IMG/VR virus record: IMGVR_UViG_3300033143_005712 | Span: 1,544-65,543 of that record | Reading direction: 5' to 3' (one strand) | Source of the DNA: a virus | DNA length: 64,000 nucleotides | Shown here: positions 3,324 to 58,527 of the stretch, piece by piece | Layout of the letters: every line of letters begins with the position of its first letter | Position numbering within the stretch: the first letter of the stretch is position 1 | Notes under the pieces: generated by a model | What the model saw: only the letters and a program-made list of their open reading frames with translations | Told to the model about the DNA's origin: nothing | Database searches by the model: none | Translations under genes and position numbers: made by a program

Positions 3324-3324
3324 T

Positions 3325-3709: not shown

Positions 3710-3716
3710 TATTACT

Positions 3717-10448: not shown

Positions 10449-11897
10449 ATGAGTGCATTACACAATAAACTCGTTACGAAACAGATGCCTTGGCACGCAA
10501 ACATGACCGAGCTTAATCACCTCGGAGCTGCTTTGATTGCCAAGCCAGCTATTTTCGAATCGAAAATGAACCAGCTCTTTACTGCCCACCGTTATTCTGA
10601 TAATCCACTTACGACTAACCTTGTAGGACTTGGAAAGGAAGAAACTATCGGTAGCTCACAATGGGAATGGCAGTTAAAAGGAGCGACAACAAGGCCGTTA
10701 GTCTCTGTTGAGAACATTTCGGGAACATCCTATCCCGGTAAAGGTCTTACCAACTATAAAATCAAACTTGATGAAAACTGGTATCAACCCGGTGACATCA
10801 TCTTTCCCGGAACTTCTAATAAGAAGTACCAATCAAGGATTCAAGAAGAAGTTCAAAAAAGTGGTACAGGAACAATCTATCATGCCCGTCTGATGACAGA
10901 TGATAGGAATGCTTTTGTTCCGCCTACACTTCTTGCTCCCGGTCAGCAATGGGGAAAACTGTACTCACAGTATGAAGAAGCTGCCGAGCAGTCTGGCTCA
11001 ACTCAGTACAGTATGCCTTTAGACCTGACAAATAAAATGGGTCGCTACAGGAAAAAATATCAGGTGACAGGTGATGCTGCTGATGAAGTTCTTGCAGTTA
11101 AGATTCAAGACAACAAGGGTAGCTGGCATGACTCTTGGGTTAAATATGCCGAAGTTGAATACTGGCAACAGTGGTATCGTGAACTTGAAAGAGGTTTCTG
11201 GTATTCTCGTTCAACTGATTCAGTACTCGGTGCAAATGGTCGTCCTATTTATACAGGGCCGGGTCTCCAAGAACAATTGGAAGACAGCCATATCTACCGG
11301 TATTCTCACCTCACAGCTAAACTCATCGAAGAATACTTGATGGACATTTTCTACTCAAGGGTAAAACCGGGTAGCCAAAGGAAAATCAAAGGATTTACAG
11401 GTGAATATGGAATGCTGTTATTCCATCGTGCAATCCAAGATTGGTCGCAGAAAACAGGATTCATCCAAATCGTACAGGACTTAACAATGTCAAAAACATC
11501 TAGTCCTTATAACGAAAACGCTCTGCAAGCTGGTTACCAGTTTACAAAGTATATTATGGCAAATGGTGCTGAACTTGAATTGGTTCACAATCCATTATAT
11601 GATGACAGAGAAATCAACTTCGAAATTGACCCTGTATCTGGATTCCCTATTGAATCACAGAGGATTACTTTCCTTGACTTTACAGGAACAGGAAGCCAGT
11701 CCAATATCAGGATTATCAACAAGAAAAATGGTTACAAACTTGGTTACGTTGCCGGCCTGAGCAATCCTTATGGCCCGAACAACGGGAAACTGATGAGTCA
11801 CTCTGGAAACTATTATGAAATGCATGTCGAAAAACAAGTTGGCCTGCATATCGAAGATGTTACTCGCTGCGGGGAACTTATCCTCAGCCGTAACTAA
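10449..11897 (+). CDS. Major capsid protein (HK97 fold, crAss type)
   Basis: 482 aa with highly biased codon usage, position after the scaffold, followed by a strong terminator. Confidence 0.9.
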   Translation: MSALHNKLVTKQMPWHANMTELNHLGAALIAKPAIFESKMNQLFTAHRYSDNPLTTNLVGLGKEETIGSSQWEWQLKGATTRPLVSVENISGTSYPGKGLTNYKIKLDENWYQPGDIIFPGTSNKKYQSRIQEEVQKSGTGTIYHARLMTDDRNAFVPPTLLAPGQQWGKLYSQYEEAAEQSGSTQYSMPLDLTNKMGRYRKKYQVTGDAADEVLAVKIQDNKGSWHDSWVKYAEVEYWQQWYRELERGFWYSRSTDSVLGANGRPIYTGPGLQEQLEDSHIYRYSHLTAKLIEEYLMDIFYSRVKPGSQRKIKGFTGEYGMLLFHRAIQDWSQKTGFIQIVQDLTMSKTSSPYNENALQAGYQFTKYIMANGAELELVHNPLYDDREINFEIDPVSGFPIESQRITFLDFTGTGSQSNIRIINKKNGYKLGYVAGLSNPYGPNNGKLMSHSGNYYEMHVEKQVGLHIEDVTRCGELILSRN

Positions 11898-43300: not shown

Positions 43301-46300
43301 TTAGTGAACTTGAAAATCATCATGAAGGCCAAGACAGGATTTTTGACAAAGAAAGTACTGAACTTGTAAGTAAAAATACTCTTCCTGAAGAAATGAAGAA
43401 GTTCTTTGCTGGTATTGAAAACTGTTACACTGATGGTACTGTTATACAAGGATTTTTAGGTGTACCAACTTATGTACCTTTCGATGTAGCAATCAATATT
43501 GTTACACGCATCATTGGAAGCAATCCTAAAGCAGGAATGACCTTTGAAGATGTAATTAAAATTCTTGGAAGAGAGAAAGAAGCTGTTCCATTTTTAGGAA
43601 ATGTTATTTCTAAGCTCAGTGACCCAAAAATTATGACTGAGCAGATAAAGAACAGATTTATGACTCACATGGTTAAGCATAATATGACCATGCAATATGT
43701 TCAATATAAGTATGATAGAAAGAGTAAGCGTTATGAACTCAGAGTATTTGATACCAACTCTTCACAGGTAGAAAAAGTAATATTCAGAGAATGGATGAAT
43801 GGTGTAAAAGCTTCTAAACTTGTAAGAGTTGATGAAGATTCACGGGACTCTATGATTAATAAAGATGAAGCACAAACACTTCATACTGAATTTCGTGAAA
43901 TGGTTGAAAGTATTAACAAAGACAATAAAACAAATCAATTTGTAAAATGGCTTACTAAAAATCTAGCTGGTAAGGATTATACAAAACAAGAAATACTTAA
44001 AATTCTTACACAAACTAAGAAAAGTGCTTTTACAGAACAAGTAAGTGAAGCTATTGACAGAAATCTTGATGAAAACAAAACCTTCTCCAAAACAGAACTT
44101 ATTGAATGGTTACCTACATCCGAGTTCTCAAATGAAAGACTTATTAACTGGTTAGCAAAATTCAATATTGTACTTTCAAACAGAACTATAGAAAGCCTAA
44201 AAGTCAACGGATATGTTGACCATAAGGGTCAAGAAGTAAACTTCACTTCAATGTTTGAGGAATCATCCAAATCAAGTGGTGTATTTGGTGGAATAGCTTA
44301 CAAACTTTCAGAGTATATCAATACCAGTGAAGGCAGGAAAATTAATATCACAGAAGACCCTCAAATGCATCCTTTCAGAAGCATTGAAACTTCATTAAAG
44401 TCATTAGCTAAAGAAGAGGGCCGTTTTAGTAGCAGGGCAGTTACTATCTCATTCAGAGATGCAGGAAAGAGTTATTCTGGATTTGTACCACCCAAATTTG
44501 CTACAGACCGGATTGACGAACTTAAAGAAGATACTGATACAAGAAAAAATCTTCAAAAAGACCCATATTCTTCAAATAGTATGCTACTGAAATTACTGAC
44601 AGGAGATTATGGTACTGAAATTCAAGAATTACTTAGAGTAGTTCATATAGGTGGTTCTGCAATGCGTAAAGCAGGAGAAAGCAATCCTACTGGAAATAAA
44701 AATGCTATTATTAATCTTGCTGATGGTGACCAAGAAATTACAAGACAAGGCTTTTTTCAGGATACAAGGCAAGGTAAAATTTCAGTCAGCAATACATATA
44801 ATGGTTTGAAATTACGTATTGCAAATATGTTCTTTCCTACAATGAGTGATAAGAAGCAGATATTAACAATGACAATGCCTGTTCTCGACCTTACCTCAAA
44901 AGAAATAGGATATAAGAATAATGAAGTACAAGCTAATGATGCAGTAAAAGAAGCCTTATTCCAACAGCTTGTAGTTCCTGAACTTAAAAGAATTATAGCA
45001 TTTCATAGAGGAGGTGGACAGGAAAATAATATTGAAGGAGTTGATTTAGCTTCTCAAGTATTTTTAATGATACCTCAACTTAATGAGTTAAAAATCGGTA
45101 ACCGAAGACTTATAGAAGTTCTTGTTAGTTTGCAGGATAAAGAGATAGCAAAGACAATGAAAGATGATGTTATTACAGATGACATTAAAGATGAGGCTAT
45201 TAAAATTATTATGAAAGTTGTTACCAAAGAGGTAAATAACAAGATTCAGAACTGGAAAGACTCAGGAATTATTACCGAAAAAGGTAATCCAGAAATGCTT
45301 AATGATGAGTATTTCAATCCTGATGATGGTGAAAGAAGGTTTGTTGATAATAAATCAGAGCTTGCTGCAACAGACTTTGTAATCAATAGTCTTATATCAT
45401 ATTCCAACATGTTTCAGACTGTTGGAGGCGATATTGCATATTACTCTCAAGATAAAGCCTTTGATAAATTTCCAGTGGATGTAGAAACTATTAAGAGATT
45501 TAAAGAAATTGATGAAATTGAATACGGAGCTGTAATAGAGCAGATTGAAACTCTTTATAATACCGGAATTATAAATAAAATAGCTTATAAACATCTGAAA
45601 GAGACTGTTAAGCCGCTTCCTTATATGGGAGATAACAAACAAGCTTACATAGACTTGACTAAAAATATCGGTACAAATCTAGGAAAACGTCTCGCATTAA
45701 TGCTTGCACCCGGTTTGAAACCTTATGGTTTGGATACCAATTACAGGCAACTGTTTTTAAAAGACTCTGTAGATATTGCTGACAATATGGAGTATATCGT
45801 TGAACTACATTATGGTGAAGATGGAGTAAAAAGGTTCAATGAGATAATGGCTATGGATACTACCGAAGAAAATAAAGAGGGATTTATAAAAGAGGAATTT
45901 CCAACTATTAGTGCATTCTTTGCTGTAGATTCTACTGATGCTCAAGAATATACAACAGCAAAAGAGCATCTTGATATTTTATTTGCATTGGGAAGAATAT
46001 CAGAACAAGAGCATAAAGACTTTACAGCTAAAGCTGAAGACCAGTATCGCAATGGTGTTACGAAAAGAAATAAACTTGAAGATAAAGAGCTTAGAGTTAT
46101 TTTTCAACCAATGAAACCTGTATATACAGGTTCTCATTTTGATGGACAAAAAATGAGAATGATGTATATTAAAACATCAGCTTATCCATTACTTCCTCAA
46201 GTAACTGCCGGTACAGCATTGGAAGACCTCAGAAAAGTTATGGATGAGGTACAGTATGGTAAAGAACTAGGTGGCATGAATGTAAGAGCTACTTATAAAA

Positions 46301-48948
46301 CAGGTGCAAAAGTAGGAGCTACAGTAACAGAAATTGACCCATTTGCTGTTGATAACAAAGGCAACTTAACTGTAGGAAAACTTACTGTAGATGAACTTGA
46401 GAAATCATCAGTAACTCTTGATAGAAGGAATTTCAGAATTCAGCAGGATGTACCTTTTCATGCTCTTGGAAGTGAAGAGAAAACAAGTGTGGTATCAATT
46501 GGTACTCAGTTGATGAAACTGCTCTTTGGTGACGGAGTAACAGATATTCAAGGTTTTCAATATGGAAAAGGGAAACCTAAGTCTGGAAAGGAACTTCTTA
46601 AAACATATAATGAAACTTTTGGAGAACTTACTGACCACCTCAAACAGGAACTTTATGATGAACTTGGATTAAACTCAAATGGACAACCTTTGAATCCTGA
46701 GTACTTTATGTCACAACTTTCTCTTATGTTACAAAGGGAAGCCAAGAAGAGGAATTATCCTCAACAAGATATTGATGCTCTTGAGATTATAGATGTAGGT
46801 GATAGAAAAGGTGGAATTTCAGGATTTATATTCAGGAATCCTCTTTGGATGTCTTCCAATGCAATGCGTTATGAGTCTTTACTCAATTCATTGATTACCA
46901 ATAAGTTAATAAAACTTAAGATGCCCGGTTATGCTTATGTTGCCGGGTCACAGAAAGGATTTGAGACTGCACATAAGGTAAAAGATGAAGAGACTGCTTC
47001 AAGAATAATTTATACGAAGCATTACAATTCTAAAACAGGACTTATTGCAGCTCGTAAAGGAAAGAAAGCTCAAATACTCATTCCTTCAAGGTTTAGAAAC
47101 AGCAGAGGTGAGCTGATTGACTTATTTGAAGGAACTATAGATGCTAATAATAATGAAAGAAATCAAGGTAAGTACGTCAGAAAAGTAAATGGTGTATGGC
47201 AACTTAAAGAAAAAATGATTGATGGTGAACTTCTGGATGTTACATCATTCAGAATTCCAACTTCTTCTCATGTATCTGCATCTCAAGTAGAAATTGCAGG
47301 ATTCCTTCCACCTGAAGCGGGTGACCTTATGATTGTACCTAAAGAATTTGCTGTACAAAAAGGACTTGATTATGACATTGATAAGGAATTTTCTTACAAT
47401 TTATGGCACGCAACTGATGAAAATGGAAGAATTGTTGCACTAAATGAACACATTGACATTGATAAAATAAGTTTTAAGCTTGATGAAGCCAGAGAAGAAC
47501 TCAGACAAATTAGAATTGGTGATGCAAATTTCTACGAAAAATTAAAAGAAATTGAAAATCTTCCTGAAGATGAAGTAAATAACAAACTTGAAAAAGCTCT
47601 TGCTGCTATACTTAACAGTACAAAATATAAAACTACTACAGTAGAAGATGTAGTAATTCGAATAAAAGCATTACAAAAAATAAGGAAAAAATATCTTGAG
47701 AATGAGATTGTAAGAATACACTCTGCAGTAATGGGTAGTGATAATCCTGAAGTACAACGTAGGATTAACAAGGTGCTTTCAATGGATTATGCTTCACAAC
47801 AGGCTGAAAAGCTTCAAGATGAAGATGCTGAATTCAATACACTTTTATCTGATGAATATCAGACAAAGAAGATGAACTTAGGTGCTGTTGGTCAGATGGC
47901 TATTGGGGTCTATTCTAACTTTGTAGTATTCAATTCACTTCTCCAACAGTCTTCATCTAACATTTCAATCAATGTTGGTGATGCCGGACTTACAATAGGA
48001 AATTATAAGTCTGATGGTAAACTAGGAAGATATACCAATATCTTGTCTTCAAATACTAGCAAAATAATTGTAGATATTATCAATTCCAAAAAAGGTCTGC
48101 AAGAAACCAAAACTGCTCAAATTGAAAAACTCAAAGAAGGTTCTCTTACTTATTATGAAATTAGTGAAATAGTAAAAGACACTAAGATATTCATAGATGA
48201 GGAGGGAAATCGTACAAGTGAAAAAGAAGGTGGTATTGAAATAAATATTATGGATGACATAAGAACTACCTCTGAAGCATTTGCAGAACGTCAGAATACA
48301 GCTACTGACAATGAGAAAGAACAAATCTTGGGCCGGGTAGGTGTGAACTCTGGAACTATCAATGTAGATAGCATTCTTACTTTACTTGGATTTGATAAGG
48401 GTGAATATGTAAAAGATGCTAATGGAGAGTTAGTTTTAGATAAAGCTCGCAAACCTATAAGGATGTCCATATCATATCTGTTAATTTCTCAACCTATTGT
48501 AAAAGAGTATATTAAGCGTAAACAGAATAGAACTGCGAAAATCAATAAAATTTTTCCGACAAATGAAGAAATGCTTGCTGAACTTATTGATGAATTTGGC
48601 GGAATGGATTCTTTGAAGACAGATGATATATTGACTACTCAAAATATGTATGATGCTGCTAAAAACGGTGTTGATAATGGTATTCAACTTAATGCTTTAT
48701 TTATGTTCTTAAGAATTCAGGAATATAGTATGAGTTTAAGTGCTACGCAACAACTAGTAGGTATTATGAAGAATGGTCTTGATAAATCTCTGTTTAATAC
48801 AACATATTTGTATGAACTATTAAGTAATATAGCCTTCGATGAGAATTTTGAGAACATTACAGATATTATTGGAGATTTTAAATTTGGTGACCAAAGTAGG
48901 AGATGTATTTATAAGACCTACAACTATGATGGGCCATCTTATTGTTAA
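37327..48948 (+). CDS. Giant virion-packaged RNA polymerase, two-barrel type (3873 aa)
   Basis: FRIPTS...KGLDYDIDK catalytic loop (DYDID at 47368-47382, matching crAss-like DFDID), upstream MKPVY...IKTS.YPL motif, size and position. Confidence 0.9.
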   Translation: MKNKDKDPTLKNTDGAIPMNEQEVNAFIASKKPMIMRGKRSEEIPPAEVSMKPMIDSRIMTNDYMSIPMDKRVPKFDPKVLEQLKGSFDESKSAYNELLWNKAEAEAKAKTNDSGNWYDAYSKVIKEGDAFDWLSVPQWAIAHIETLDVIGSRTAAKVFGGEEEDYGIPEKVFNVAKKFASAEANIKAIITGDIARILDVADWRVTNIIPTKQSAYAFYRDVIGTLKRHGENLEATEFMQNLNESLYEYLDETPQKVIPWSDKKWEQYNAETQRIREKGEATDFYGYLKKMDKAFEWLDDWIGDEETSNWFTDLTDASQSSRTTRTDLVTEFALDNDVPYWSMDGANWTINNGVNTQTSLTAFAIEGMIPGGLFAKMKTIPMLVRGAKTAKEAQNMIRVGNVILNNKFTRGLSSFSKNTLVPTMKTGISGAVPAGSEVGQIGRDVERQAKLIYAEKYGGELWKQHWERQQQIYFRQAQREGNEKEVMSRMQQYEVEEVERFFVEVLKDKETYNKIVKQSAHAARIAIKGNSPMYFMNFPFGMALNNMSAFAKRMRVGYKNLAGGSISTRAASVKNLSVGKTMKVLGLEMASESLIEEGWINPWGEWRGIAYAKGETLTGDKFSDRLWEGELLESMLWGAAGALMMGAPQAVSYRSNKKAYKHYMEKYNEYVESLPEDAKKALFNIITSNSSTFKQAQLEQEIKEGNAAGQDTRALNALILRSQALTAFKTGMTEQLLDIYQQIANTSENVDEKQAAQDIIAEILELEKVYIDTQKWEDNLAVFDIVADIKANSKVALQNDMIIEAELKAAAVEQLEAGKKAFENADYYFEEDGTLKFTGKDADAFRDRMLVKPKVKHVSNYNKAILSNADITQELIDSENQLKDVTSDQYQRDVRVAKKVEQKVAKNFPDLFSSETGNEFRQKMSAIFKGEKLSKKREAILYKKYKNMYNGFKKSRQQNSMAPKGYVPIVSKNKLIHRQTQNIAKKFTRNRKADKNVDEDAAPIKVTPDDENYAKAEVNKWINNRKSAGDTNLTFDRMIRDYLGLDEKQLTENELDSRKEDTEAMFDMLEYGWSKGGHGETNGKEVYQEHFVEEFSTENSLQRFRNRIKGRTVKAEPKETTPVKQEKEDEITEEESDIIDEETKQETKEAIEAGEIVNEEKEEAEETVNSLGRYITLKFKAYKSAPISLMTGIRKIKIFRVKDSNIDGVRLFNVKKFKKGVRLALKITTESDYNIPIVYRINGEEQKFEKTSKSDYGGFFENKYGRITHFRYKNITVEIEGEGFKFSQVPTEVGPDGRLQDAVEYKSYDHREPGTVLNDEKNPNTRHHQHKVTDDFFVVNDGDFSALNNPNVHEVRVKRIINNPSKEGGKSYIELTIVDKDGKEGKLRKVEVENDREQNVPMGAADESDGAMVAWIDTYQTLLLDDTHDEAAIRAAQKNTIAFRKDVVNGKKKTAAIHANAPIGNPRFDEMTESTSIAEQDPTAILGQRIRGVIRIGTEVFENKKRKIVNKDEILNENVDAKSLPIDIRFIGINENGVELYAAFFAHGLEKGAKQDSVGSGNILWVLRAYITKFDTEGKLNHIISPKTRKAITEKLHTITSGYPISDFRGVKEYLNNFTIMDVPSDVKLDKKMNKTKFMTYVNSSKIAPGQPVLMMNGPVIFYAIKGEGIPTGGVNEDGSPKTTKMISIYLSESNFNAKELETLLTSIETKASSFKKSFNSEYSRKEGKIATFEKNGIINEMDYTEHQRNNLTTNIKAFEETSGGETFYVTATNTSVSIDTNQEGTAQAVAQTPSKKEEIIGLQMETLSEELPESKTTEEAIEDNKTPDEIKLLIEIRRALGLLGSKKINKLFATIDLSEDFSLIKEALNTPAFFHTVPGVNPLQKEQIVLTVVNAIINSGKSLTKENIQEMINNGFVNQIVEGKSKFQSLIDKLDALIESGSEIESLVEISQELKDSMKIFDTVEKNWKKFEDDIRVQLYKYAGLDENQAISELENHHEGQDRIFDKESTELVSKNTLPEEMKKFFAGIENCYTDGTVIQGFLGVPTYVPFDVAINIVTRIIGSNPKAGMTFEDVIKILGREKEAVPFLGNVISKLSDPKIMTEQIKNRFMTHMVKHNMTMQYVQYKYDRKSKRYELRVFDTNSSQVEKVIFREWMNGVKASKLVRVDEDSRDSMINKDEAQTLHTEFREMVESINKDNKTNQFVKWLTKNLAGKDYTKQEILKILTQTKKSAFTEQVSEAIDRNLDENKTFSKTELIEWLPTSEFSNERLINWLAKFNIVLSNRTIESLKVNGYVDHKGQEVNFTSMFEESSKSSGVFGGIAYKLSEYINTSEGRKINITEDPQMHPFRSIETSLKSLAKEEGRFSSRAVTISFRDAGKSYSGFVPPKFATDRIDELKEDTDTRKNLQKDPYSSNSMLLKLLTGDYGTEIQELLRVVHIGGSAMRKAGESNPTGNKNAIINLADGDQEITRQGFFQDTRQGKISVSNTYNGLKLRIANMFFPTMSDKKQILTMTMPVLDLTSKEIGYKNNEVQANDAVKEALFQQLVVPELKRIIAFHRGGGQENNIEGVDLASQVFLMIPQLNELKIGNRRLIEVLVSLQDKEIAKTMKDDVITDDIKDEAIKIIMKVVTKEVNNKIQNWKDSGIITEKGNPEMLNDEYFNPDDGERRFVDNKSELAATDFVINSLISYSNMFQTVGGDIAYYSQDKAFDKFPVDVETIKRFKEIDEIEYGAVIEQIETLYNTGIINKIAYKHLKETVKPLPYMGDNKQAYIDLTKNIGTNLGKRLALMLAPGLKPYGLDTNYRQLFLKDSVDIADNMEYIVELHYGEDGVKRFNEIMAMDTTEENKEGFIKEEFPTISAFFAVDSTDAQEYTTAKEHLDILFALGRISEQEHKDFTAKAEDQYRNGVTKRNKLEDKELRVIFQPMKPVYTGSHFDGQKMRMMYIKTSAYPLLPQVTAGTALEDLRKVMDEVQYGKELGGMNVRATYKTGAKVGATVTEIDPFAVDNKGNLTVGKLTVDELEKSSVTLDRRNFRIQQDVPFHALGSEEKTSVVSIGTQLMKLLFGDGVTDIQGFQYGKGKPKSGKELLKTYNETFGELTDHLKQELYDELGLNSNGQPLNPEYFMSQLSLMLQREAKKRNYPQQDIDALEIIDVGDRKGGISGFIFRNPLWMSSNAMRYESLLNSLITNKLIKLKMPGYAYVAGSQKGFETAHKVKDEETASRIIYTKHYNSKTGLIAARKGKKAQILIPSRFRNSRGELIDLFEGTIDANNNERNQGKYVRKVNGVWQLKEKMIDGELLDVTSFRIPTSSHVSASQVEIAGFLPPEAGDLMIVPKEFAVQKGLDYDIDKEFSYNLWHATDENGRIVALNEHIDIDKISFKLDEAREELRQIRIGDANFYEKLKEIENLPEDEVNNKLEKALAAILNSTKYKTTTVEDVVIRIKALQKIRKKYLENEIVRIHSAVMGSDNPEVQRRINKVLSMDYASQQAEKLQDEDAEFNTLLSDEYQTKKMNLGAVGQMAIGVYSNFVVFNSLLQQSSSNISINVGDAGLTIGNYKSDGKLGRYTNILSSNTSKIIVDIINSKKGLQETKTAQIEKLKEGSLTYYEISEIVKDTKIFIDEEGNRTSEKEGGIEINIMDDIRTTSEAFAERQNTATDNEKEQILGRVGVNSGTINVDSILTLLGFDKGEYVKDANGELVLDKARKPIRMSISYLLISQPIVKEYIKRKQNRTAKINKIFPTNEEMLAELIDEFGGMDSLKTDDILTTQNMYDAAKNGVDNGIQLNALFMFLRIQEYSMSLSATQQLVGIMKNGLDKSLFNTTYLYELLSNIAFDENFENITDIIGDFKFGDQSRRCIYKTYNYDGPSYC

Positions 48949-51900
48949 AGGTATTACAACAGGACATGCTCTTTCTCTTGAAACAAACAATATAGGACAA
49001 CCATTATTTCCTTATACTAATGATAGTGTAGAGCATGTAATGAATGAAATAATGAGAATGACCAAAGCAACTCAATATGGTAAGAATGAAGCTGTTGAGT
49101 TCAAAAATACTATGATGAAAGGTATTCGCAAGTTTATCAATAGTGGTCAGGAAAGTACTATTATAAATGGAAATACTGAAGGACAACGTAAAAGACTGTT
49201 TTTGGAACATGATGATGCTCCTTCACTAGCATCTTACCTGTTGGGTCTGAAGACAGCAAAAAACAATGTGATAACAACTAATTATTTATTGAATGATATG
49301 CTTCAATATATACCATCAAATAATGATGGTATATCAACCATATTCTTTGATAACAGTGCTGATAATGCTTTTAACGAAAAGAATGTTTATGTAGCATTCG
49401 AAAATTTGATAGCAGACCCTCAAGCTCTTCCTGATAATAAAGCAATATCGGATGAATCTATTCTTCCTAATGAACAGGGTGACTTGTATATGGAACAACA
49501 ATTTGCTTTAACTTCTCATGAGATTCAATCAATGGAAAGCTTTGACAAACAAGTTATTGTCACAGCTAATAACATGGGGATGAATAAAGGTGAAACAAAG
49601 CTTTTCAAGACAAAAGATAATAATTCAAGAGGTGACCGGTATAAAGTTACTTATTTGGGCAAGATGACCAAGAATAACTATGAAGGAAACTTTGTATTGG
49701 ATAGTGGACAACCAAGAACCAAATGGACTCAACAGACTGAAGAGTTTGATGCAGGACAAGAAAAATCTATATTCAGAATTGAACCTATTTATACAACTGT
49801 AGATTTAGCTGAAGACCTCACATCTTATTCATTTCTTTCAGGAGGTGTACAAGGGCCAATTGAATTTGGAAAATATATTCCTTTAAGAATGCTTGAAGAG
49901 ATGGGATACACAGATAATATGAAGAATATTGACATTACAGATGGAGTAGTAATGGCAAAACTATTAGGAATGACTGCAGGTATAAGTAATTTTGCTATTC
50001 AGTTTTTTCAACATAATCCTGATACTCTTCCTTCTTTTACAAGAAAAAAGCTTAATCTTGAACAATATAAAGTAGGCAAACTCAACAATATACCTGAAGA
50101 ATTAGTACCTAAGATTGAAAATGCAGATGGAACTAAGACTCCTCATGCTATGTTTACTATAAAGAATACAGTAGAAAACAATTTTAATGTATATATTTAT
50201 GGTGAGTATTCAGATAACAAAAATGTTATCAGAAAAGGTTATATCAGATTACCACAAGTAGGTGTTCACGGAATGAGTGAGTATGACATTAAGAAAGTTA
50301 ATGTAAACAGTATCTTGAACAGTAAAGTAAAGCCAGCTCAAGTAACTTCTATTCAGCCAGAATCAACTGAATCTACAGATGCTTATGGTATATTATCAAA
50401 TAGTCCCAAAACTACACTTCAGTCTATTGCTACCAGAGATGATTCATTAGGTGAACTTGCTAAAGTTCTGATTCCTATTAATGATAAAGGATTGACAATA
50501 GGTGTTGATAAACTTATAGGTGAAGATGGTAAATACAATCCTACACAACATCATGCTACAATCTCTACAAATGTTGTACTCGGAGAAGATAGAAACAGAC
50601 AAGCAGAAGTATTTTTGCATGAGTATATTCATGGTCTTACATCAAAGGAGTTTAACGAATATTTTGACCATGAAGGAAACTTCAAATCGGGTATAACCAT
50701 TAATGATGTTCCTCAGCATATCAAAGATGTTTACAATATGTTTTTAGATGCCAAAGATGTCTTTGGAATTACTGATGAGAAACTAGCTCAGGTGAGAACA
50801 AAGAAGGCAGAAGAAGGAGTTTTGAATCCAGAAGAAATCTTTATTTATGGTTTCTCAAATGTTAAAGAATTTGTTACAGCTACTATGACTGAACCAACTT
50901 TCAGAGAAAGGCTGCAACAGCAGAAATATAAAGACTCAAACTTCTTTGATAAGTTTACCAAGATAATCAAAGATATGCTTAAAGCTCTCAATCCTAATGC
51001 TGAGAATACAATGTTAGATGCTGTAAGCGGAGTTATCCTGAATATGGTTATAGCAGATGTTGTTCAGGTTGAGCCAAAACAGGAAGAAACATCAGTAAAC
51101 ACAATGCTTAATAATATTTTTGATTATGTGGATGAGGATACTGGAGAGGTATATAGTGTAGAAGGAGAACAAGCAACTATCAGGATGCAACCTGATAATG
51201 TTACTAAGATAAAGGCTGGCACAAAGACCACTACTATAAGGAGTAAAAAAGAAGCTGATAAAATTGGTATTCCAGTAGGAGAAACTAAAGTTGTTGTATT
51301 CGAAGATGTACCATTTACTGTAACCAATAGAGGAGAACTCACAATTGAAGAAGCAGGAGGTGTTGAAGCAATGATTGCATCTGAAGATGTAGGCTCTGTT
51401 GAGAATTTCAAATTTGCTCAAACTAAAAATTGGATAAATGGAAAAGGAAAACTCTTTGTATATGATATCAGTCCTATAGCGGAAACTGAAAGTGAAAAAG
51501 AAGTTGTACGATATGTTAATACTGATACGGGGGAAATCACCTCAACTCCACCAACTAAGCCAGAACCAACTCCTGTGCCCAAAATAGTAGAACCGCCTAC
51601 AGGTAAAAAAGAATTTACTTACAAAGGAGATACTATTGAAACAGAATTTCCATTGGGAAAAGAGCAAAAAGATGCTTTGATAACATTACTTTCTTTTGTA
51701 GAAGGTAATGCTACAGATAATAAAGTTGTTAAACAAGCTCTTGCTCAAAATGTAATTACTCTCCAAGGTAGTGCCGGTACAGGAAAAACTACTATTATTG
51801 GATATTTGCAGAAAATGTTGGAAAAAAGAGGCACATCTCATCTTATACCAACTTATGTTGCACCTACTCACTTTGCTACAGTACAACTTGGAATGGCAAC

Positions 51901-53437
51901 TTTAAAACTTGGAAATAAACACCTTCCTTCTACAGTTAAAAGTACAGTATTTGCAATTGATAAAAGAGACGCTCAAGGAAGAAGAATTGGTGATGAAAAA
52001 GAATGGTTGTTTAGTGCTAAAATAAATAAGAGAATAGGAAAATATGGAGCACCTTTAATGATTGTTGATGAAGCCTCAATGTTAAGCAAAGAGGAAATTG
52101 ATGGATTACAAGCAGCAGTTGAAAATAGAGGTGGAAAACTAATTCTTATGGGTGATATTGCACAAATTCCTGTTGTAGATACAAGAAAAGGTATTACGGA
52201 AAAAAATGTTTCTCCTGCTTTTGAGTTATCTAAATTTGTTCTTGATAAAGTATATCGTCAATCAGAAGGGCCACTTTTAGATTTACTTACAAAAATCAGA
52301 ACCAACATTGATTATAAAAGTTACAAGACACCAAAACATGAATCTATTCGAATAGTTCCAACAAAAGAATTTGTATCATCCTTAATGAAAGACCTAAAAG
52401 AAAATGCTGAAGAAACAGTTATTATTGACTACACTAACAAAGGTGTAAAAGCATCTAATGCTTCAGCAAGACAATTGCTTGGATTTTCAGGCGAACCGAA
52501 AGTTGGAGAACAAGTAATTGGTTATGGTGGAAACAATACTAAACAAATTGAAGATGGTGACATTGCAAACAGCGTTAAATATGAAATAACAGAAATAAAA
52601 AAAGATGACAGTGGAATAATTCATATTAAGGGAAAATCTAGTGTTCTTGGTAAAATGGCTGAAAAATATGAAGGTGTATCTGAAGAGGCTGAAGGAAAAT
52701 ATATGCAACTGTCTTTAGATGATTCACTTGGATTTGACCTGACTGAAAAACAAATGGAAAACAATAACAGACTTCTTTCTGATATTTTTAAAGATATTGT
52801 AAATACTGTAAATGAAATTAGTGTAGCAACAGCAGCAAGAGATTGGGGACTAAAAAAACAATTAACAAATGTACTTGAAGGACATGAAAGAAGTCTTGGT
52901 TCATATGACGTTGGTGACAATTATATGTATGACATACAGAATGACAGAGTTGTAAAAAAAGATAAGAATATAATAGCACGTACACCAAAGAACTTACATG
53001 GAAAAGTGGTATTGAATAAAGGAATTGATTATGGATATGCTATTACAATTCATAAAAGTCAAGGGTTGACTGTAGAAAATGTATATTTTAATATGGAAAG
53101 TTTGAATAGAGTACCAGATTTGAAAATAATGCTTGATGGTAAACAAATAAATTCAGAGAAGAATACACTATATTATGTTGCAATGTCAAGAGCTTCAAAA
53201 AAAGTTGTAATTAATGAAAATGAAGCTTCATTTACAGATACATTTATCAGTGAAAAGAAGCCTGCATCATTTACCCCAATGCACCCTTCAGAAGGTGATT
53301 TAACAGGAACTAATCCGCCTGATTTATCTCCTGCTAAAAGACAAGAAATACTCAACAACGAATATCAGTATCTTGTTGATGATATTAATGATACCTTTGG
53401 TAATACAAATATTAACAATCTTAAATGTAGAAAATGA
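48839..53437 (+). CDS. RNAP C-terminal continuation: zincin protease + ASCH domain + Dda/RecD-like SF1 helicase
   Basis: HEYIH at 50618-50632; IKAGTKTTTIRS ASCH motif at ~51210; GSAGTGKT (51767-51790), IVDEASML, LMGDIAQIP, VYRQ, YAITIHKSQG, YVAMSRA. True start uncertain (frameshift, or ATG at 48926). Confidence 0.85.
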   Translation: MRILRTLQILLEILNLVTKVGDVFIRPTTMMGHLIVKGITTGHALSLETNNIGQPLFPYTNDSVEHVMNEIMRMTKATQYGKNEAVEFKNTMMKGIRKFINSGQESTIINGNTEGQRKRLFLEHDDAPSLASYLLGLKTAKNNVITTNYLLNDMLQYIPSNNDGISTIFFDNSADNAFNEKNVYVAFENLIADPQALPDNKAISDESILPNEQGDLYMEQQFALTSHEIQSMESFDKQVIVTANNMGMNKGETKLFKTKDNNSRGDRYKVTYLGKMTKNNYEGNFVLDSGQPRTKWTQQTEEFDAGQEKSIFRIEPIYTTVDLAEDLTSYSFLSGGVQGPIEFGKYIPLRMLEEMGYTDNMKNIDITDGVVMAKLLGMTAGISNFAIQFFQHNPDTLPSFTRKKLNLEQYKVGKLNNIPEELVPKIENADGTKTPHAMFTIKNTVENNFNVYIYGEYSDNKNVIRKGYIRLPQVGVHGMSEYDIKKVNVNSILNSKVKPAQVTSIQPESTESTDAYGILSNSPKTTLQSIATRDDSLGELAKVLIPINDKGLTIGVDKLIGEDGKYNPTQHHATISTNVVLGEDRNRQAEVFLHEYIHGLTSKEFNEYFDHEGNFKSGITINDVPQHIKDVYNMFLDAKDVFGITDEKLAQVRTKKAEEGVLNPEEIFIYGFSNVKEFVTATMTEPTFRERLQQQKYKDSNFFDKFTKIIKDMLKALNPNAENTMLDAVSGVILNMVIADVVQVEPKQEETSVNTMLNNIFDYVDEDTGEVYSVEGEQATIRMQPDNVTKIKAGTKTTTIRSKKEADKIGIPVGETKVVVFEDVPFTVTNRGELTIEEAGGVEAMIASEDVGSVENFKFAQTKNWINGKGKLFVYDISPIAETESEKEVVRYVNTDTGEITSTPPTKPEPTPVPKIVEPPTGKKEFTYKGDTIETEFPLGKEQKDALITLLSFVEGNATDNKVVKQALAQNVITLQGSAGTGKTTIIGYLQKMLEKRGTSHLIPTYVAPTHFATVQLGMATLKLGNKHLPSTVKSTVFAIDKRDAQGRRIGDEKEWLFSAKINKRIGKYGAPLMIVDEASMLSKEEIDGLQAAVENRGGKLILMGDIAQIPVVDTRKGITEKNVSPAFELSKFVLDKVYRQSEGPLLDLLTKIRTNIDYKSYKTPKHESIRIVPTKEFVSSLMKDLKENAEETVIIDYTNKGVKASNASARQLLGFSGEPKVGEQVIGYGGNNTKQIEDGDIANSVKYEITEIKKDDSGIIHIKGKSSVLGKMAEKYEGVSEEAEGKYMQLSLDDSLGFDLTEKQMENNNRLLSDIFKDIVNTVNEISVATAARDWGLKKQLTNVLEGHERSLGSYDVGDNYMYDIQNDRVVKKDKNIIARTPKNLHGKVVLNKGIDYGYAITIHKSQGLTVENVYFNMESLNRVPDLKIMLDGKQINSEKNTLYYVAMSRASKKVVINENEASFTDTFISEKKPASFTPMHPSEGDLTGTNPPDLSPAKRQEILNNEYQYLVDDINDTFGNTNINNLKCRK

Positions 53438-56400
53438 GTTGTTTTAAGAATAAAATAGCGAAAGAGAACTTCAAGAAGTTAACAGAAGTATTTGGAAGTA
53501 AGGACACTGCTTTAACTTTGATAAGTGCAAATAATGGATACTCATTGGAATTTGATAAAGATGGAAATCCAAGTGTTCTATTCAAGCAAATACTGGACAT
53601 TGTAGGAAATAAGGAACAGGCGTTTATACTTAAATCTACAATTTATAAAAGAGCATTTTTAGATGAACCTTTTTTAAGCGACATATCAGAGTCATTTGCA
53701 GAAGACGATGCTCCTAGAAAAAAAATAACTATGGGTGTTATGAAATCTATTGTATATGAAGAAGCTATTTCAATAGGTACTACAGTCAAACCTAAAGGAG
53801 GTCATAATGATAATGTAAAAAAAGCCGGCACGAATACTCTTTATAGTGACAATCCAGCAAGAACTGCTGGTATTATTAACTCAAGATATGAACAAGATAT
53901 TGCATCTGTTCAAAATGGACATGTACTTATTAATCCTAGTGATTCGTATATTGACCATATGATAAAAGTTGAAAACCAAAAACGAGCTGATGCTGAAAAC
54001 TTGAGAATGATAAATGAGTTTATTCAAAATGAAGAAGAAGCTAATTATCACATACTCAAACCTTTTGATGATTATGGTAATCCACTTTTTGAAACTCAGG
54101 AAGAGATGGAAGATTCTGCTTTACCTAGAGAACTTACCCGAAGTGATAAACAAGGTGATTTCATGAAGTATAAAGAATATGTTGCTAATGATATTAGCAA
54201 ACTTCAACAAAGGCTTAATGCACTTATAGGCAAGAACAAAACAACTTATGATAGAGCTGAATCTCATGCTTTAACTGAAAAAATAGCAAGAATACAACTT
54301 AGAATCAAAGAACTCAAGGAACGTAAAAAAGAATTAACTTCTACAGCAGCTGTACTTGAAAATATTGAAGGTATGGCTGCTACTGATTTGACAAGAGTAC
54401 AAAATTTACTTAGTTCTAAATCAACCAGTAGAGACCTTATTGAAGCTCGTGACATTATTACATGGTATATGTCTTTGGGAGAATTTGTTGTAAAAGCAAA
54501 CCATCCTTTCTTCAAGGATAGTCTGGAATATGATAATGAAAAAATGAAAAAGGCTTTTATGAAAATTTATGACAATTTCAAAGAAATGCAAGGAAAGCTT
54601 GATGATATGAATATGAAACATATCGAGGCTGCATTTATTGCTCATAGAAATATAAAAGAAGTAAAGGATGAAAAAGGAAAAATAGAAGCTTATACATTCG
54701 GAGATACCAAAATTGAAAAAGGAAATGTAATGGATTATCTTTTCGGAGATGTTCATGATATTGATAAATTATCTGCATTATTCTTAGACCCCACTCTTAC
54801 TTATGATTTTAAAAGAGGAGAAGGCTTTTCAGAAAGTGTTATTCCTCAAATTATGAGTAGTTTGTTTGTTGACAGGATTTCAGAAAAAATGGCTTATGGT
54901 CAGGAAAAGATGGCTATTATAGATACCTTATTTCATAAACTCAGAGGTATAATCAAAGGTGACTACTCTATATTTTATCAGAAGGATTCCAGAGAATTTC
55001 AAACAGAATTTCTTATAAATCCTTTCAAATCGGAATGGTTCAGTTTGAAAACCTCAATTGAATTGGATGAAGAAAAAAGATTTGAAAGAATAAGAAAAGA
55101 TGGTGAATTTATTGATATACGCAGACTTCCTGAAGTTAAAGAAGCATTCAAAAATGCAGGATTTGGTTTTAGATTTACTAGTGATGTTGATGCAAAAAGG
55201 TATTCTGAAAGACTGAAAGCAAAAATAGGTGCAGGTACTGGTAAAGAGAATTATGAATACAAAAGGATTGTTGACTCTCAAATAAAACTTATTGACCAGT
55301 TTACATTTGAAAGAGCAGCATTTGTTAAAGAAAGATTTCCAGAAAAAACTGTTGATGATTTATCTCCAAAAGAAAGAGAAATTCTTGAACAATATGATTT
55401 GGAAAATAGTCCTTTTCATGTATTTAATGTACCAGAAACAAATCAACATTCTCATATAGTTGATGGAGAAGTTGTACAAATAACTCCAAATGCAAAATTC
55501 AACGAATTTATTCCTAATAATGAAAACATAGAAAAATATAAAGACCCAAGATTTGAGACAATTAGCGATAATTCTGAAATGTACAGATTATGGAATGAAG
55601 TAAGTGAAGTATTATTATATGTAAACAATGTTTTAGCCAGTGTAGGTCAAGACAGAGTTACATTCAACTCTTTACTTGCTATGGAGAAACAATTTCGGAA
55701 ACAAATAGGTAGAACTGATTTACCTCTAGGTTCTATGGTTAAAAATGCTCATAGTAAAATAGTTGGAAAAATTATAAAAGGATTAGGTGTAAAAGAATAC
55801 GAGTTTACCGGAAAAGAAAATGATGAAGAATCTATCAATTATGGTAATATGAAAAGTACTAAAGTACTTGTTGATAGAAAAAACGGTAATTATCAGAGTA
55901 TGCTCAAGACTTTTGAAATGACTATTACAGATGGTATAAAAATAAAGACTTTAACATCGAAAAAAGATATTCCTAACAATGCAAAGGTGACCATAACAGA
56001 TGAACTTGTTGATTTTCTGAAAAAAGTTATGATAGAAGAAGACTTCAATGAGTTTATAAAACTTAAAAATAACAGTTATGATTTCTTAAAAAAAGCAATT
56101 CGTACTGGTGCAAGACGAGAAATTATTGACCAGCATCGTATGGATTTACCCAAGGTATTACGTCATTTTATTTCTCATGCTATAAGAGTTGATGCCGCTA
56201 ATGAAGTTGCACCTACTATCTTACTTATGCAGAACTATTATAATCAATTAACAACACCAAATATTAAAGACAAAAGAGGCAAAGTTGTAAAAGAAGGAGG
56301 AGAACAAAGAATTCGTGGAGAAAAAAGAGTCGACCAATGGATTGAAACTGCCGTAAAAGGTAATTTTGCTGAAAAAGGAGCACCAATAGGAAAGAAAATG

Positions 56401-58527
56401 CTGACTCCTGAAGAAAAAAAAGAAAGAAAATTCCTCAAAGAACTTGCACAAAGACTCAAAGATGAAAGAGAAGCTAAACACAGAGGAGAAACACTATCAA
56501 TACCTTCAACTTACGAAGAATCTATTCAAGAAAGAATGGAAAATTTGGGAAGAAAATTCGATATGATGTTACCATTCAAAGTAGCTCATCCTATTATTAT
56601 GTTCATGGGTATGGCTTTTAACTTTGTGTCAGGTAGTCGTAATGTAGCTTATGGTATAATTTCCAATGTATTCCACGATGCTGTTGGTGATTTATGGACA
56701 AGAGGTAACTCATTAAGAGTTGTAAACTTTGTAATGGGTAAAGGTAGAAAACAATTCTATTTACGACAACCTCTTAGAGGAAAAGCAGATATTATGCATC
56801 ACAAACGTCATGGAAAAAATCTTGTACTTGCTGAAATGTTTATAGATAGGTCTAAGATTATTCAGGACATGCGTAATGAAAAGCAAAGAGCTAGTAACCG
56901 TTTAGGTAAAACTACAGGTAAGCAAAAGTTTAATCCTTATTACCTCTCTATTACAGCTCCTGAATGGCGTAATCAAACTATTACAATATTATCAACTTTA
57001 ATGGATGAAGAAATCATTGATTCTCATGGAAATAAATCCAAAATATTTAATGGTAATGAATTTCTGATTTATAATGAAGTTGACGAAGAAGGAAGAATAA
57101 AAGGTACTTCTTATACTAAGATTGTAGATGGAAAAAAAGTTAAGAAAAAAAGTAAAGGTGGAATATTACAACTTAAACCTGAATTCAGATATCAAGCTGA
57201 TGGTATTACAGAGAATACAGAAAACATCAACAATTGGGAAAAAATGTCAGGTGGTGATTACAGAGCTTTCAGAGAGAATGCTGTAAGTAATGTAAAGATA
57301 GTACATGGTGACTATTCCAATGTAGCAGGTATCCCGATAAAGAATACCCAATTTGGAACATATTGGATGATATTTTTAGGATGGTTGCCTGCTATGATAT
57401 GGTCTTATTGGGGACATGGCCCTAATCTTGCTGCAGGCAAAATAAGACATAGAAGTGTTATGAGGAGTGCCAAACCAATAACAGCAACTTTATTTACAGC
57501 TTCTCTTACAATGGGGGCTTTTGGTTTAACAACTTTTGGTTGGCCTCTAGCAATAGGTGCAGGAGCAGCATTGGTTGCAGGAATAGTAGCAGAAGCAACA
57601 CGAAAAGAAAAATCTCAAGTTCCTATATTAAGAGAACTTTGGGTTACATTGGCAGAACTCTCATTAACTACACTCAATATACCTATTGCACTTGCTACAA
57701 GAAGAACAATCAAAGGTATGGATGTAGAAAAAAAATTAGGACTTACACGAGAAGAAGCAGGTGCTATGAGAGGATTGCTTGTAAATATTGGTATGAGAAT
57801 AAATCTTATTCTTATGAGCAATTTACTTTACAAATTTGCTGACTGTGAAGAAGATACTTGGAGATGTAAGAAGCAAATTATGGCAAGAAATTTTGTTATT
57901 AATAATGCTGGAATGTTACTGGATGATTTAGGAGTAATTGCTAATCCTATGTCGCTTCTTCAAACAATGAGTACCGATGGAACTTTTCTTAGATTCGTAC
58001 TCAAACTTGGTGATTGGATTGGTGCTGCAGAAAAACTAGACAGATTTGAAGATATTATAACTACCGGAGAATTTCAAGGTGGTTCTAAAACACAAGGTAA
58101 ACTTGGAAAAACTTTTATGCCTTCTATTTTCAAATACATTGGAGTTAATGTAAATGCTGATTGGGGCGATATGGGTCAAGGAGAAATGCCTCTTCCATTA
58201 ACTACTCCGGTCTCTATGGATAGAATATTCGATAAGAGATTCTTGTTTATTGAACGCTCTACTGATTATAACAAGTATGACAGATATGAAACAATTCGTG
58301 AAGTTAAAAGAGATGAAGAAGAAGCTAGACTTAACAAGCTAAACAAAAAAAGACCTGCTAATGCTAAGTGGAGTGATAATGAGATAGATGCAAAGGCAGG
58401 AAAAGCATTTCCAACACTTACATCACGTAAAAACAGACTAAATACTGAATACGGTAAAGGAACATCATTAGCTGAAAGTAGATATGAACAAGAAGTTGAT
58501 GAATTCTTAGAAGAGCACGATAACTAA
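53434..58527 (+). CDS. Large ejected cargo protein with multiple TM-like segments (1697 aa)
   Basis: Coiled-coil N-half and several hydrophobic helices (e.g. ASLTMGAFGLTTFGWPLAIGAGAALVAGIV); last late gene. Confidence 0.75.
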   Translation: MSCFKNKIAKENFKKLTEVFGSKDTALTLISANNGYSLEFDKDGNPSVLFKQILDIVGNKEQAFILKSTIYKRAFLDEPFLSDISESFAEDDAPRKKITMGVMKSIVYEEAISIGTTVKPKGGHNDNVKKAGTNTLYSDNPARTAGIINSRYEQDIASVQNGHVLINPSDSYIDHMIKVENQKRADAENLRMINEFIQNEEEANYHILKPFDDYGNPLFETQEEMEDSALPRELTRSDKQGDFMKYKEYVANDISKLQQRLNALIGKNKTTYDRAESHALTEKIARIQLRIKELKERKKELTSTAAVLENIEGMAATDLTRVQNLLSSKSTSRDLIEARDIITWYMSLGEFVVKANHPFFKDSLEYDNEKMKKAFMKIYDNFKEMQGKLDDMNMKHIEAAFIAHRNIKEVKDEKGKIEAYTFGDTKIEKGNVMDYLFGDVHDIDKLSALFLDPTLTYDFKRGEGFSESVIPQIMSSLFVDRISEKMAYGQEKMAIIDTLFHKLRGIIKGDYSIFYQKDSREFQTEFLINPFKSEWFSLKTSIELDEEKRFERIRKDGEFIDIRRLPEVKEAFKNAGFGFRFTSDVDAKRYSERLKAKIGAGTGKENYEYKRIVDSQIKLIDQFTFERAAFVKERFPEKTVDDLSPKEREILEQYDLENSPFHVFNVPETNQHSHIVDGEVVQITPNAKFNEFIPNNENIEKYKDPRFETISDNSEMYRLWNEVSEVLLYVNNVLASVGQDRVTFNSLLAMEKQFRKQIGRTDLPLGSMVKNAHSKIVGKIIKGLGVKEYEFTGKENDEESINYGNMKSTKVLVDRKNGNYQSMLKTFEMTITDGIKIKTLTSKKDIPNNAKVTITDELVDFLKKVMIEEDFNEFIKLKNNSYDFLKKAIRTGARREIIDQHRMDLPKVLRHFISHAIRVDAANEVAPTILLMQNYYNQLTTPNIKDKRGKVVKEGGEQRIRGEKRVDQWIETAVKGNFAEKGAPIGKKMLTPEEKKERKFLKELAQRLKDEREAKHRGETLSIPSTYEESIQERMENLGRKFDMMLPFKVAHPIIMFMGMAFNFVSGSRNVAYGIISNVFHDAVGDLWTRGNSLRVVNFVMGKGRKQFYLRQPLRGKADIMHHKRHGKNLVLAEMFIDRSKIIQDMRNEKQRASNRLGKTTGKQKFNPYYLSITAPEWRNQTITILSTLMDEEIIDSHGNKSKIFNGNEFLIYNEVDEEGRIKGTSYTKIVDGKKVKKKSKGGILQLKPEFRYQADGITENTENINNWEKMSGGDYRAFRENAVSNVKIVHGDYSNVAGIPIKNTQFGTYWMIFLGWLPAMIWSYWGHGPNLAAGKIRHRSVMRSAKPITATLFTASLTMGAFGLTTFGWPLAIGAGAALVAGIVAEATRKEKSQVPILRELWVTLAELSLTTLNIPIALATRRTIKGMDVEKKLGLTREEAGAMRGLLVNIGMRINLILMSNLLYKFADCEEDTWRCKKQIMARNFVINNAGMLLDDLGVIANPMSLLQTMSTDGTFLRFVLKLGDWIGAAEKLDRFEDIITTGEFQGGSKTQGKLGKTFMPSIFKYIGVNVNADWGDMGQGEMPLPLTTPVSMDRIFDKRFLFIERSTDYNKYDRYETIREVKRDEEEARLNKLNKKRPANAKWSDNEIDAKAGKAFPTLTSRKNRLNTEYGKGTSLAESRYEQEVDEFLEEHDN

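Follow-up and report, generated by a model that had tools for sequence, protein, structure and literature searches.

The 64-kb window analyzed here, taken from a 67.9-kb linear IMG/VR viral contig (IMGVR_UViG_3300033143_005712; completeness estimate ~72%), contains an open reading frame (ORF) of 1532 amino acids (aa), referred to below as the helicase ORF, which overlaps the end of a 3873-aa ORF that carries the core of a crAss-type virion RNA polymerase (RNAP). Beyond its metallopeptidase (zincin) domain, the chain has gained an ASCH domain similar to Escherichia coli YqfB and an intact Dda-like helicase of superfamily 1B (SF1B). The setting is of a known kind, that of the crAss-type virion RNAP polyprotein with its polyvalent cargo, and the variant with a helicase and an ASCH domain is widespread in public sequences, with no description of it found in the literature. 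The copy in the window is one member of that variant and has an arrangement of its own. The coordinates of all the features are collected in Table 1.

The helicase domain was recognized by curated profiles as well as by the complete set of SF1 motifs. Three Pfam families scored above threshold, namely AAA_30 (66.7 bits, cut-off 27), AAA_19 (54 bits, cut-off 25.1) and UvrD_C_2 (28.2 bits, cut-off 27.4), and PHROG 325, 'Dda-like helicase', was matched with an E-value of 2e-55. Sequence matches in the PDB included T4 Dda (3UPU, E 6e-4), a Dda-like 'deep-sea helicase' and the Bacteroides Pif1-family chain 5FTB. The catalytic motifs comprise the Walker A GTGKT (K983), DE at 1077-1078, GDxxQ (Q1109), R1140, HKSQG at 1405 and SR1451, and the catalytic residues are invariant in all 77 non-identical, non-standalone copies that were aligned. 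Judged by its residues, the helicase is apparently catalytically intact and active. With T4 Dda, RecD2 and Pif1 (e.g. PDB 3UPU, 8JX6 and 5FTB) the domain shares all SF1 motifs and direct sequence matches; unlike those proteins, it is embedded in a 1532-aa chain and carries an insertion of ~200 aa between motifs IV and V. The product of gene 44 of phage Fpv1, annotated as 'DNA helicase', was considered as an ortholog and rejected, as it shares generic SF1 motifs only (42% identity over 55 residues).

The ASCH domain is recognized by its predicted fold and by its motif GTKTTTIR (nucleotides (nt) 51218-51241), although the sequence profile stays below threshold. Pfam ASCH (PF04266) reached 14.2 bits against a cut-off of 21.2, and PDB sequence and profile searches with the segment returned chance matches only. 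A HMMER search for homologues yielded 132 representative clusters, from which a 71-sequence alignment was built; the Pfam family matched 11 of these 71 sequences, weakly (best E 0.03). The AlphaFold2 (AF2) model predicted from the alignment (pLDDT, the predicted local distance difference test, of 90) has the PUA-like beta-barrel fold of ASCH proteins. The top 16 structural matches given by VIA-align are all ASCH proteins, with E. coli YqfB at Z 9.2 over 93 of 103 residues and PH0355 at Z 8.1, and Foldseek assigned a probability of 1.0 to ASCH entries and to N4-acetylcytidine (ac4C) amidohydrolases. Among the AlphaFold Swiss-Prot models, nearly all the matches are ac4C amidohydrolases; ORFd of retron Ec67 (P21318) was also matched in this set, with a probability of 0.98.

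In YqfB, itself an ac4C amidohydrolase, Lys21, Thr24 and Glu74 are the catalytic residues and Arg26 is the oxyanion residue; alanine mutants of Lys21, Thr24 and Arg26 are inactive, and loss of Glu74 causes a 1000-fold drop (PMC6972931). K796, T799 and R801 are spaced as in the GxKTxTxR motif of YqfB, and E849 lies 53 residues past the lysine, which equals the distance from K21 to E74. These residues are kept in 70 (K796), 63 (T799), 66 (R801) and 67 (E849) of the 71 homologues. The catalytic residue set of YqfB is thus found in the domain, the Glu and the Tyr corresponding by spacing and not by superposed coordinates. YqfB (PDB 9KYF/9KYH) is the best structural match; it differs in being a free enzyme of 103 aa, whereas the ASCH domain is part of a giant phage protein, and the two share ~20% identity with no sequence-profile match. 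Linkers rich in P, E and T lie on either side of the domain (aa 745-780 and 880-930). A 10-residue peptide, YV[DN]xDTGE[VI]x, occurs in two copies that exactly flank the ASCH domain, and the DNA of the two copies is loosely similar by eye. It could be left over from the insertion of the domain or serve as a cleavage site locally; a more general use of YV[DN]xDTGE[VI] as a cleavage motif was rejected, as it was not found at the domain borders of relatives.

The zincin domain contains HEYIH (aa 594-598, nt 50618-50632) followed by Glu677 (nt 50867-50869) within the sequence KEFVTA. An iterated search collected 53 ORFs with a homologous domain, 42 of which were aligned. H594, E595, H598 and E677 are conserved in at least 90% of this alignment and are the only nearly invariant polar residues, which constitutes a gluzincin signature. 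The segment aa 540-745 matched PHROG 16227 (E 3e-12) and also profile positions 2097-2240 of PHROG 2206 (E 6e-10), the 'virion RNA polymerase' of the N4 type. The latter positions fall in the same region in which Iyer et al. 2017 (PMC5512222) place the HExxH metallopeptidase (MPTase) of N4 gp50 (aa 2130-2448). Additionally, the motif EF..P.FR that follows Glu677 gave a pairwise match to gp65 of phage phi14:2. The Pfam SprT-like family reached 18.7 bits on the segment, below its cut-off of 25.6.

The AF2 model of the zincin domain (pLDDT 75) gave weak matches in a VIA-wide search, namely anthrax lethal factor (Z 6.1) and, at Z 3.8-4.5, PPEP, ArdC, minigluzincins and SPRTN (ArdC and the minigluzincins at 4.4), and nothing significant in Foldseek. 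Over 48,161 PDB representatives the top match was an ejectosome protein of the podophage PhiM1 (8VB2_A residues 356-501, Z 7.2), a modelled similarity which hints that ejection proteins of unrelated podophages may contain a similar domain. A few relatives (loci L007-L009, on ~97 kb contigs of IMG/VR 3300045988) have lost HExxH. These have two zincin-like domains, both HExxH-less (e.g. L008:9294-9869 and L008:10658-11224), one of which ends the RNAP ORF and the other begins the following helicase ORF; the same contigs also contain a stand-alone helicase paralogue.

The catalytic core of the RNAP was located in the upstream 3873-aa ORF, with DYDID at nt 47368-47382 (aa 3348), and the helicase ORF is without an RNAP catalytic motif. 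The upstream ORF matches PHROG 16227, 'virion structural protein' (a 4401-position profile), with an E-value of 1e-224. A tblastn search with its aa 2500-3500 found Flavobacterium psychrophilum phages of the Fpv1/FpV4 group (37% identity) and many Crassvirales and, at lower scores, the 'Catalytic RNA polymerase subunit' g066 of phi14:2 (2e-8), the 'putative RNAP catalytic subunit' of crAss002 and the RNA polymerase of IAS virus. Moreover, phmmer with phi14:2 gp66 matched the upstream ORF (E 1.7e-17); the matching blocks are collinear and cover the DxDxD segment, so that a two-barrel RNAP homologous to gp66 is identified there. The N-terminal part of the helicase ORF matches PHROG 16227 as well (E 1.6e-23), and its first ~300 aa are weakly collinear with the C-terminal tail of gp66 (1747-1828). 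PDB sequence searches with the RNAP region and with this N-terminal part gave no match.

A sequence-only reading of the stretch, made from the letters and without database searches, had described a HEYIH zincin, an ASCH domain and a Dda/RecD-type SF1 helicase separated by P/E/T-rich linkers, in the context of a crAss-like virion RNAP. The results above agree with it on each of these points, and the context is further supported by the position of the block on the same strand after the terminase, portal and major head protein genes and by its collinearity with Fpv1 gp33 and phi14:2 gp66/gp65. The same reading had also seen an RNAP-like part at the N-terminus of the helicase ORF; this has to be corrected in that the catalytic core belongs to the upstream ORF, beyond the frame break. 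Its proposals of co-ejection, promoter opening, processing by the protease and erasure of an ac4C-type modification are inferences.

The nearest isolate is Fpv1, whose gp33 (4401 aa, 'virion structural protein', PHROG 16227) is 30% identical and collinear, including DYDID and HExxH. The upstream ORF aligns to it over aa 1744-3867 (gp33 1755-3719), and the alignment continues in the helicase ORF at aa 20-198 (gp33 3716-3895) and aa 312-719 (gp33 3896-4312). In contrast to the situation in the window, gp33 is one uninterrupted ORF and has neither an ASCH domain nor a Dda-like helicase. Because it ends ~90 aa past the zincin, the ASCH domain and the helicase are additions relative to the nearest isolate.

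The comparison with gp33 also locates a +1 frame break between the two ORFs of the window. The homology runs in frame 1 until IIGDF and resumes in frame 2 from VGDVFIRP, which by gp66 coordinates is within the RNAP-equivalent region, ~300-400 aa before its end. The break is absent from all the relatives examined, in which the ORF is continuous. For a programmed +1 frameshift, no convincing slippery site was found in tttaaatttggtgaccaaagtagg. The break may represent an assembly indel, a recent mutation or recoding.

We then turn to the occurrence of the helicase in other viral sequences. Since a single-protein scan of IMG/VR with aa 730-1480 returned no relative, an alignment-based scan was needed; it gave 284 loci confirmed by tblastn, and the figures presented here rest on the best 77. 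By simple phmmer, homology to the helicase and to the RNAP was found in the same stop-to-stop ORF at 23 loci and in an adjacent co-directional ORF at 12. The other loci had an ORF of at least 2000 aa with no RNAP match (25 loci), a mid-size ORF with another marker of the RNAP block (5) or a stand-alone helicase (11), and one was unclear. With an iterated hidden Markov model (HMM) of the RNAP core, the core was found in 23 of the 25 giant ORFs (E 1e-78 to 1e-151), and the revised count of loci with helicase and RNAP core in one ORF is 46 of 77. In IMG/VR, as represented by the best 77 of the 284 loci, most members of this helicase clade are fused to the RNAP; because many of these are near-copies from one sample (3300045988), the counts over the 77 loci are not counts of independent events.

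The arrangement of the domains varies among the loci. The helicase lies downstream of the RNAP core in L011 and L014 and upstream of it in L071-L085, and the order RNAP, zincin, helicase, as in the window, is also seen in L020, L075 and L086. In a maximum-likelihood tree the helicase of the window is sister to that of L011, which belongs to a 5243-aa ORF with a gp65-like C-terminus. Stand-alone helicases are interspersed in the tree, and ~5-6 state changes are required. When long proteins were searched with a word index, the same helicase (38-41% identity) turned up in phage proteins 1000-2650 aa in length, together with AlkB-like oxygenase, ART-PolyVal, NADAR, intein or PD-(D/E)XK domains. 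A DprA-like domain (PHROG 768) and a PHROG 2072 domain were observed upstream of the helicase in a 1810-aa helicase-bearing ORF (L009:10394-15823), and in the GenBank genomes cr113_1, cr109_1 and cr130_1 the features under the RNAP tblastn matches are annotated 'DprA-like'.

A similar linkage was observed for the ASCH domain. Among proteins of at least 2000 aa that carry this ASCH subfamily, 49 of 53 contain the RNAP core, with the ASCH domain usually at the extreme C-terminus. At least five more protein families combine ASCH with the helicase, and they do so in both orders, with ASCH first in P0019, P0020, P0062 and P0104 and helicase first in L053-L059, L087 and P0021. No other sampled locus showed zincin, ASCH and helicase in exactly this order within a single ORF, and a tblastn search with the ASCH domain in 50,697 deposited phage genomes gave no match.

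Two genomes deposited in GenBank, cr50_1 and cr118_1, both ICTV-classified (International Committee on Taxonomy of Viruses) Suoliviridae, each encode a giant Crassvirales protein that carries a Dda-like helicase of this clade at its C-terminus. They differ from the window in that the helicase identity is only ~25-28%, and the papers searched do not treat these proteins as a fusion. The protein of cr50_1 (QOR58058.1; MT774375, 3649-17973; L088) is 4774 aa long, with DFDID at aa 3154 and the helicase at 4232-4716, and no ASCH domain was detected in it. The protein of cr118_1 (QOR58373.1; MT774379; L090) is 4946 aa long, and both its CDS length and the position of the helicase were confirmed. The GenBank and RefSeq labels read only 'DNA helicase' or 'exonuclease V'; by naming the proteins after one C-terminal domain, they hide the RNAP in these giants.

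The sequence-only reading knew of no other helicase and ASCH fusion on a virion RNAP. As regards sequence data this does not hold, since the fusion is widespread in IMG/VR and occurs in two GenBank genomes; as regards the literature it does, since no paper describing it was found. The architecture is therefore common, and its earlier description was not encountered. The survey of polyvalent proteins (PMC5512222) covers SNF2-type SF2 and UvrD-type SF1 helicases, and its text has no occurrence of Dda, RecD, ASCH or PUA. Yutin et al. 2021 mention helicases in the replication block only and none for the RNAP block, a 2023 review of Crassvirales has zero occurrences of 'helicase', and the preprint on phi14:2 (bioRxiv 10.1101/2020.03.07.982082) discusses neither a helicase nor an ASCH domain for this block. 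The literature searches found no paper on a fusion of helicase or ASCH to a crAss-type RNAP, Yutin et al. 2018 (Nature Microbiology), whose figures or supplement may show a helicase box, lying outside their scope.

The gene order supports the assignment of the block to the virion genes. On the plus strand the terminase, portal and head protein genes are followed by several virion proteins and then by three very large ORFs. The stop codon of the helicase ORF overlaps the start of the third of these (ATGA), which encodes a 1697-aa protein; its homologs also sit after the helicase ORF in loci L007-L009, and an ortholog, gp34, is found in Fpv1. This gene is the last of the block, and coding then switches to the minus strand, which carries recombination genes such as exonuclease VIII and a RusA-like resolvase. 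The block thus closes the structural operon ahead of the strand switch. Hydrophobic helices were observed near the C-terminus of the 1697-aa protein (~aa 1340-1400); it is a candidate membrane-inserting ejection protein. An assignment of the same gene to the C-terminal part of gp65 is not supported, as a small HMM of the phi14:2 gp65 C-terminus gave no match. A family search with the C-terminal tail of the helicase ORF (aa 1467-1532) also gave no match.

Table 1. Features of the virion RNAP block and of the late operon in the 64-kb window (nt positions of the window).
Feature	Coordinates	Strand	Basis or remark
Large terminase (TerL)	4515-6668	+	late operon
Portal	6674-9109	+	late operon
Major head protein (MCP)	10449-11897	+	late operon
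Upstream giant ORF, 3873 aa, with crAss-type RNAP core	37327..48948	+	PHROG 16227, tblastn, phmmer, motif check
Helicase ORF, 1532 aa	48839-53437	+	one uninterrupted ORF, all three domains
+1 frame break	48883..48895 (approx.)	+	inside ORF overlap 48839-48948
N-terminal part of helicase ORF, aa 1-539, between RNAP core and zincin	48839..50455	+	Fpv1 gp33 alignment, PHROG 16227
Zincin (gluzincin / polyvalent-protein MPTase), aa 540-745	50456..51073	+	conservation, PHROG profiles
Peptide YVDEDTGEVY, aa 762-771	51122..51151	+	first copy of bracketing motif
ASCH domain, YqfB-like, aa 781-880; K796, T799, R801, E849, Y875	51179..51478	+	AF2 fold (predicted), conservation
Peptide YVNTDTGEIT, aa 891-900	51509..51538	+	second copy, within P/T/E-rich linker
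Dda-like SF1B helicase, aa 930-1466; Walker A GTGKT 51776-51790	51626..53236	+	Pfam, PHROG, PDB, motifs
C-terminal tail, aa 1467-1532, and stop codon	53237..53437	+	ORF map
Next gene, 1697 aa, Fpv1 gp34 ortholog	53434..58527	+	BLASTP to Fpv1 gp34, E 2e-29

Two known systems are relevant for the interpretation of this block. The first is the gp67-gp66-gp65 block of phi14:2 (gp66 PDB 6VR4; Drobysheva et al., bioRxiv 10.1101/2020.03.07.982082), which resembles the block in the window in that a two-barrel RNAP with DxDxD, followed by a zincin-bearing partner, gp65, closes the structural operon ahead of the strand switch. It differs in that it consists of three separate genes with no helicase or ASCH domain in them, and it shares very little sequence identity (tblastn E 2e-8 over 287 aa). 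According to the same preprint, proteins of this type of block are detected in virions and are fused to one polyprotein in some phages; the notes of the sequence records likewise report virion detection of gp66 and gp65 by tandem mass spectrometry (MS/MS). The preprint further reports that ejected gp66 synthesizes the early, rifampicin-resistant transcripts, that in vitro it is efficient on single-stranded DNA (ssDNA) and denatured DNA and poor on native double-stranded DNA (dsDNA), and that no common motif was detected upstream of the early transcripts. QDE-1, a eukaryotic relative of gp66, needs RPA and the helicase QDE-3 (bioRxiv 10.1101/2020.03.07.982082). The second system is that of the polyvalent proteins (PMC5512222), e.g. 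the virion RNAP gp50 of N4 with its MPTase and P1 DarB, a methyltransferase fused to an SF2 helicase; like the ORFs in the window, these are large multi-enzyme chains encoded among virion genes and provided with a zincin MPTase. Polyvalent proteins that contain an MPTase are incorporated into the virion and delivered together with the DNA, and DarB is a precedent for a packaged helicase (PMC5512222). In comparison with N4 gp50, the RNAP in the window is of the two-barrel crAss type and not T7-like.

The reading that we favor, and to which we give an even chance, takes the helicase ORF as the distal portion of a virion RNAP polyprotein of the crAss/Fpv type, a polyvalent cargo protein, and has the ejected helicase supply ssDNA to an ssDNA-preferring RNAP. 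In this scheme the protein would be made late and packaged together with the RNAP, its own zincin would cut the chain at the P/E/T-rich linkers, and the cargo would be ejected with the DNA. The helicase would then load onto the entering genome and expose single-stranded template for the RNAP. The ASCH domain might bind or de-acylate a cytosine-type base (N4-acyl group) in tRNA or DNA, or merely bind nucleic acid; this step is the weakest of the mechanism and is loosely held. In favor of this reading are the intact catalytic residues, the position in the late operon, the collinearity with virion proteins of Fpv1 and phi14:2 and the recurrence of the RNAP-helicase and RNAP-ASCH joins across many independent contigs, a linkage regarded as being under selection. 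The ssDNA preference of gp66, the need of QDE-1 for QDE-3 and the precedent of P1 DarB also speak for it.

It is important to mention that several points weigh against the favored reading. As the frame break separates their ORFs, the helicase and the RNAP core may never be one chain in this contig. Many of the 77 loci are near-copies from a single sample. The ASCH assignment depends solely on a modelled fold and a motif, and His70 of YqfB has no counterpart in the domain; the fold match of the zincin model is also weak. Presence in virions is recorded only for homologues that lack the helicase, and the closest isolates, Fpv1 and phi14:2, are without the helicase and the ASCH domain. Finally, SF1B helicases require a 5' ssDNA tail, which the entering genome may not offer, and phages like phi14:2 do without a fused helicase.

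The same arrangement could also be explained as counter-defence cargo, in which the injected helicase and ASCH domain protect the incoming DNA or disarm the host with no role in transcription, the linkage to the RNAP resulting merely from a shared packaging and ejection route. The helicase could strip restriction, CRISPR or nucleoid proteins, and the ASCH domain could act as a reader or eraser of a modified base in the tRNA or DNA of the host. The domains that adjoin homologous helicases (ART-PolyVal, AlkB-like 2-oxoglutarate (2OG) oxygenase, NADAR, DprA-like and PD-(D/E)XK) are a typical polyvalent effector mix, P1 DarB is a packaged anti-restriction protein (PMC5512222), and PUA-like/ASCH domains are in places discussed as modified-base readers of restriction systems. 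However, the linkage is mostly to the RNAP core specifically, for the helicase (46/77) as well as for the ASCH domain (49/53), and no defence target could be identified. We regard this explanation as possible, though on the unlikely side; it is compatible with a transcription-helper role and does not exclude it.

We consider it distinctly improbable that the domain is a replication or recombination helicase that is merely co-translated, being freed by the zincin before packaging or made from an internal start, and that acts in the cytoplasm, late in the producing cell or in replication, and is not ejected. Its nearest named relatives are indeed stand-alone SF1 helicases of crAss replication modules, in p-crAssphage (gp14) and in Rudgehvirus (next to UDG and PolB), proteins of the P1 DdrB type are cut before packaging (PMC5512222), and no second Dda-like helicase was found in the 67.9-kb contig; this contig is, however, ~72% complete, and a replication copy may be in the missing part. 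Moreover, the gene lies in the late structural operon and not in a replication module, and co-translation alone does not readily account for fusions to the RNAP that recur on both sides of its core. Because some related contigs (L027 and L030) keep a separate stand-alone paralogue in addition to the helicase embedded in the block, the fused copy is not simply the replication helicase. As for a joining of three separate genes by mis-assembly or by a lost stop codon, the frame break does indicate that the contig may have at least one indel. Nevertheless, the ORF is open for 1532 codons through zincin, ASCH and helicase, the composition is uniform, and dozens of contigs from independent assemblies, as well as two GenBank genomes, contain the same zincin-helicase and RNAP-helicase joins. 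Since the joins recur in independent assemblies, an artefact of this kind is very unlikely.

With respect to the wider family, the repertoire of polyvalent proteins is widened by two modules that are missing from the text of the 2017 survey, namely an SF1B helicase of the Dda type and an ASCH domain resembling YqfB; this ASCH subfamily is almost confined to RNAP polyproteins. For annotation practice, the 'DNA helicase' label that GenBank gives to giant Crassvirales proteins stands for RNAP polyproteins. As a tentative and rather doubtful generalization, in a large share of crAss-like phages the virion RNAP may be delivered physically coupled to its own Dda-type helicase, which would be the missing factor that makes entering dsDNA into an ssDNA template, a phage counterpart of QDE-1/QDE-3, and the ASCH domain would provide a second enzyme, injected alongside, with an N4-acylated cytosine of host or phage nucleic acid as its target. 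The retention of an intact helicase in the chain or operon of the RNAP, in many lineages and on either side of the core, makes a role of this helicase in initiation on a double-stranded genome a concrete hypothesis that can be tested in vitro.

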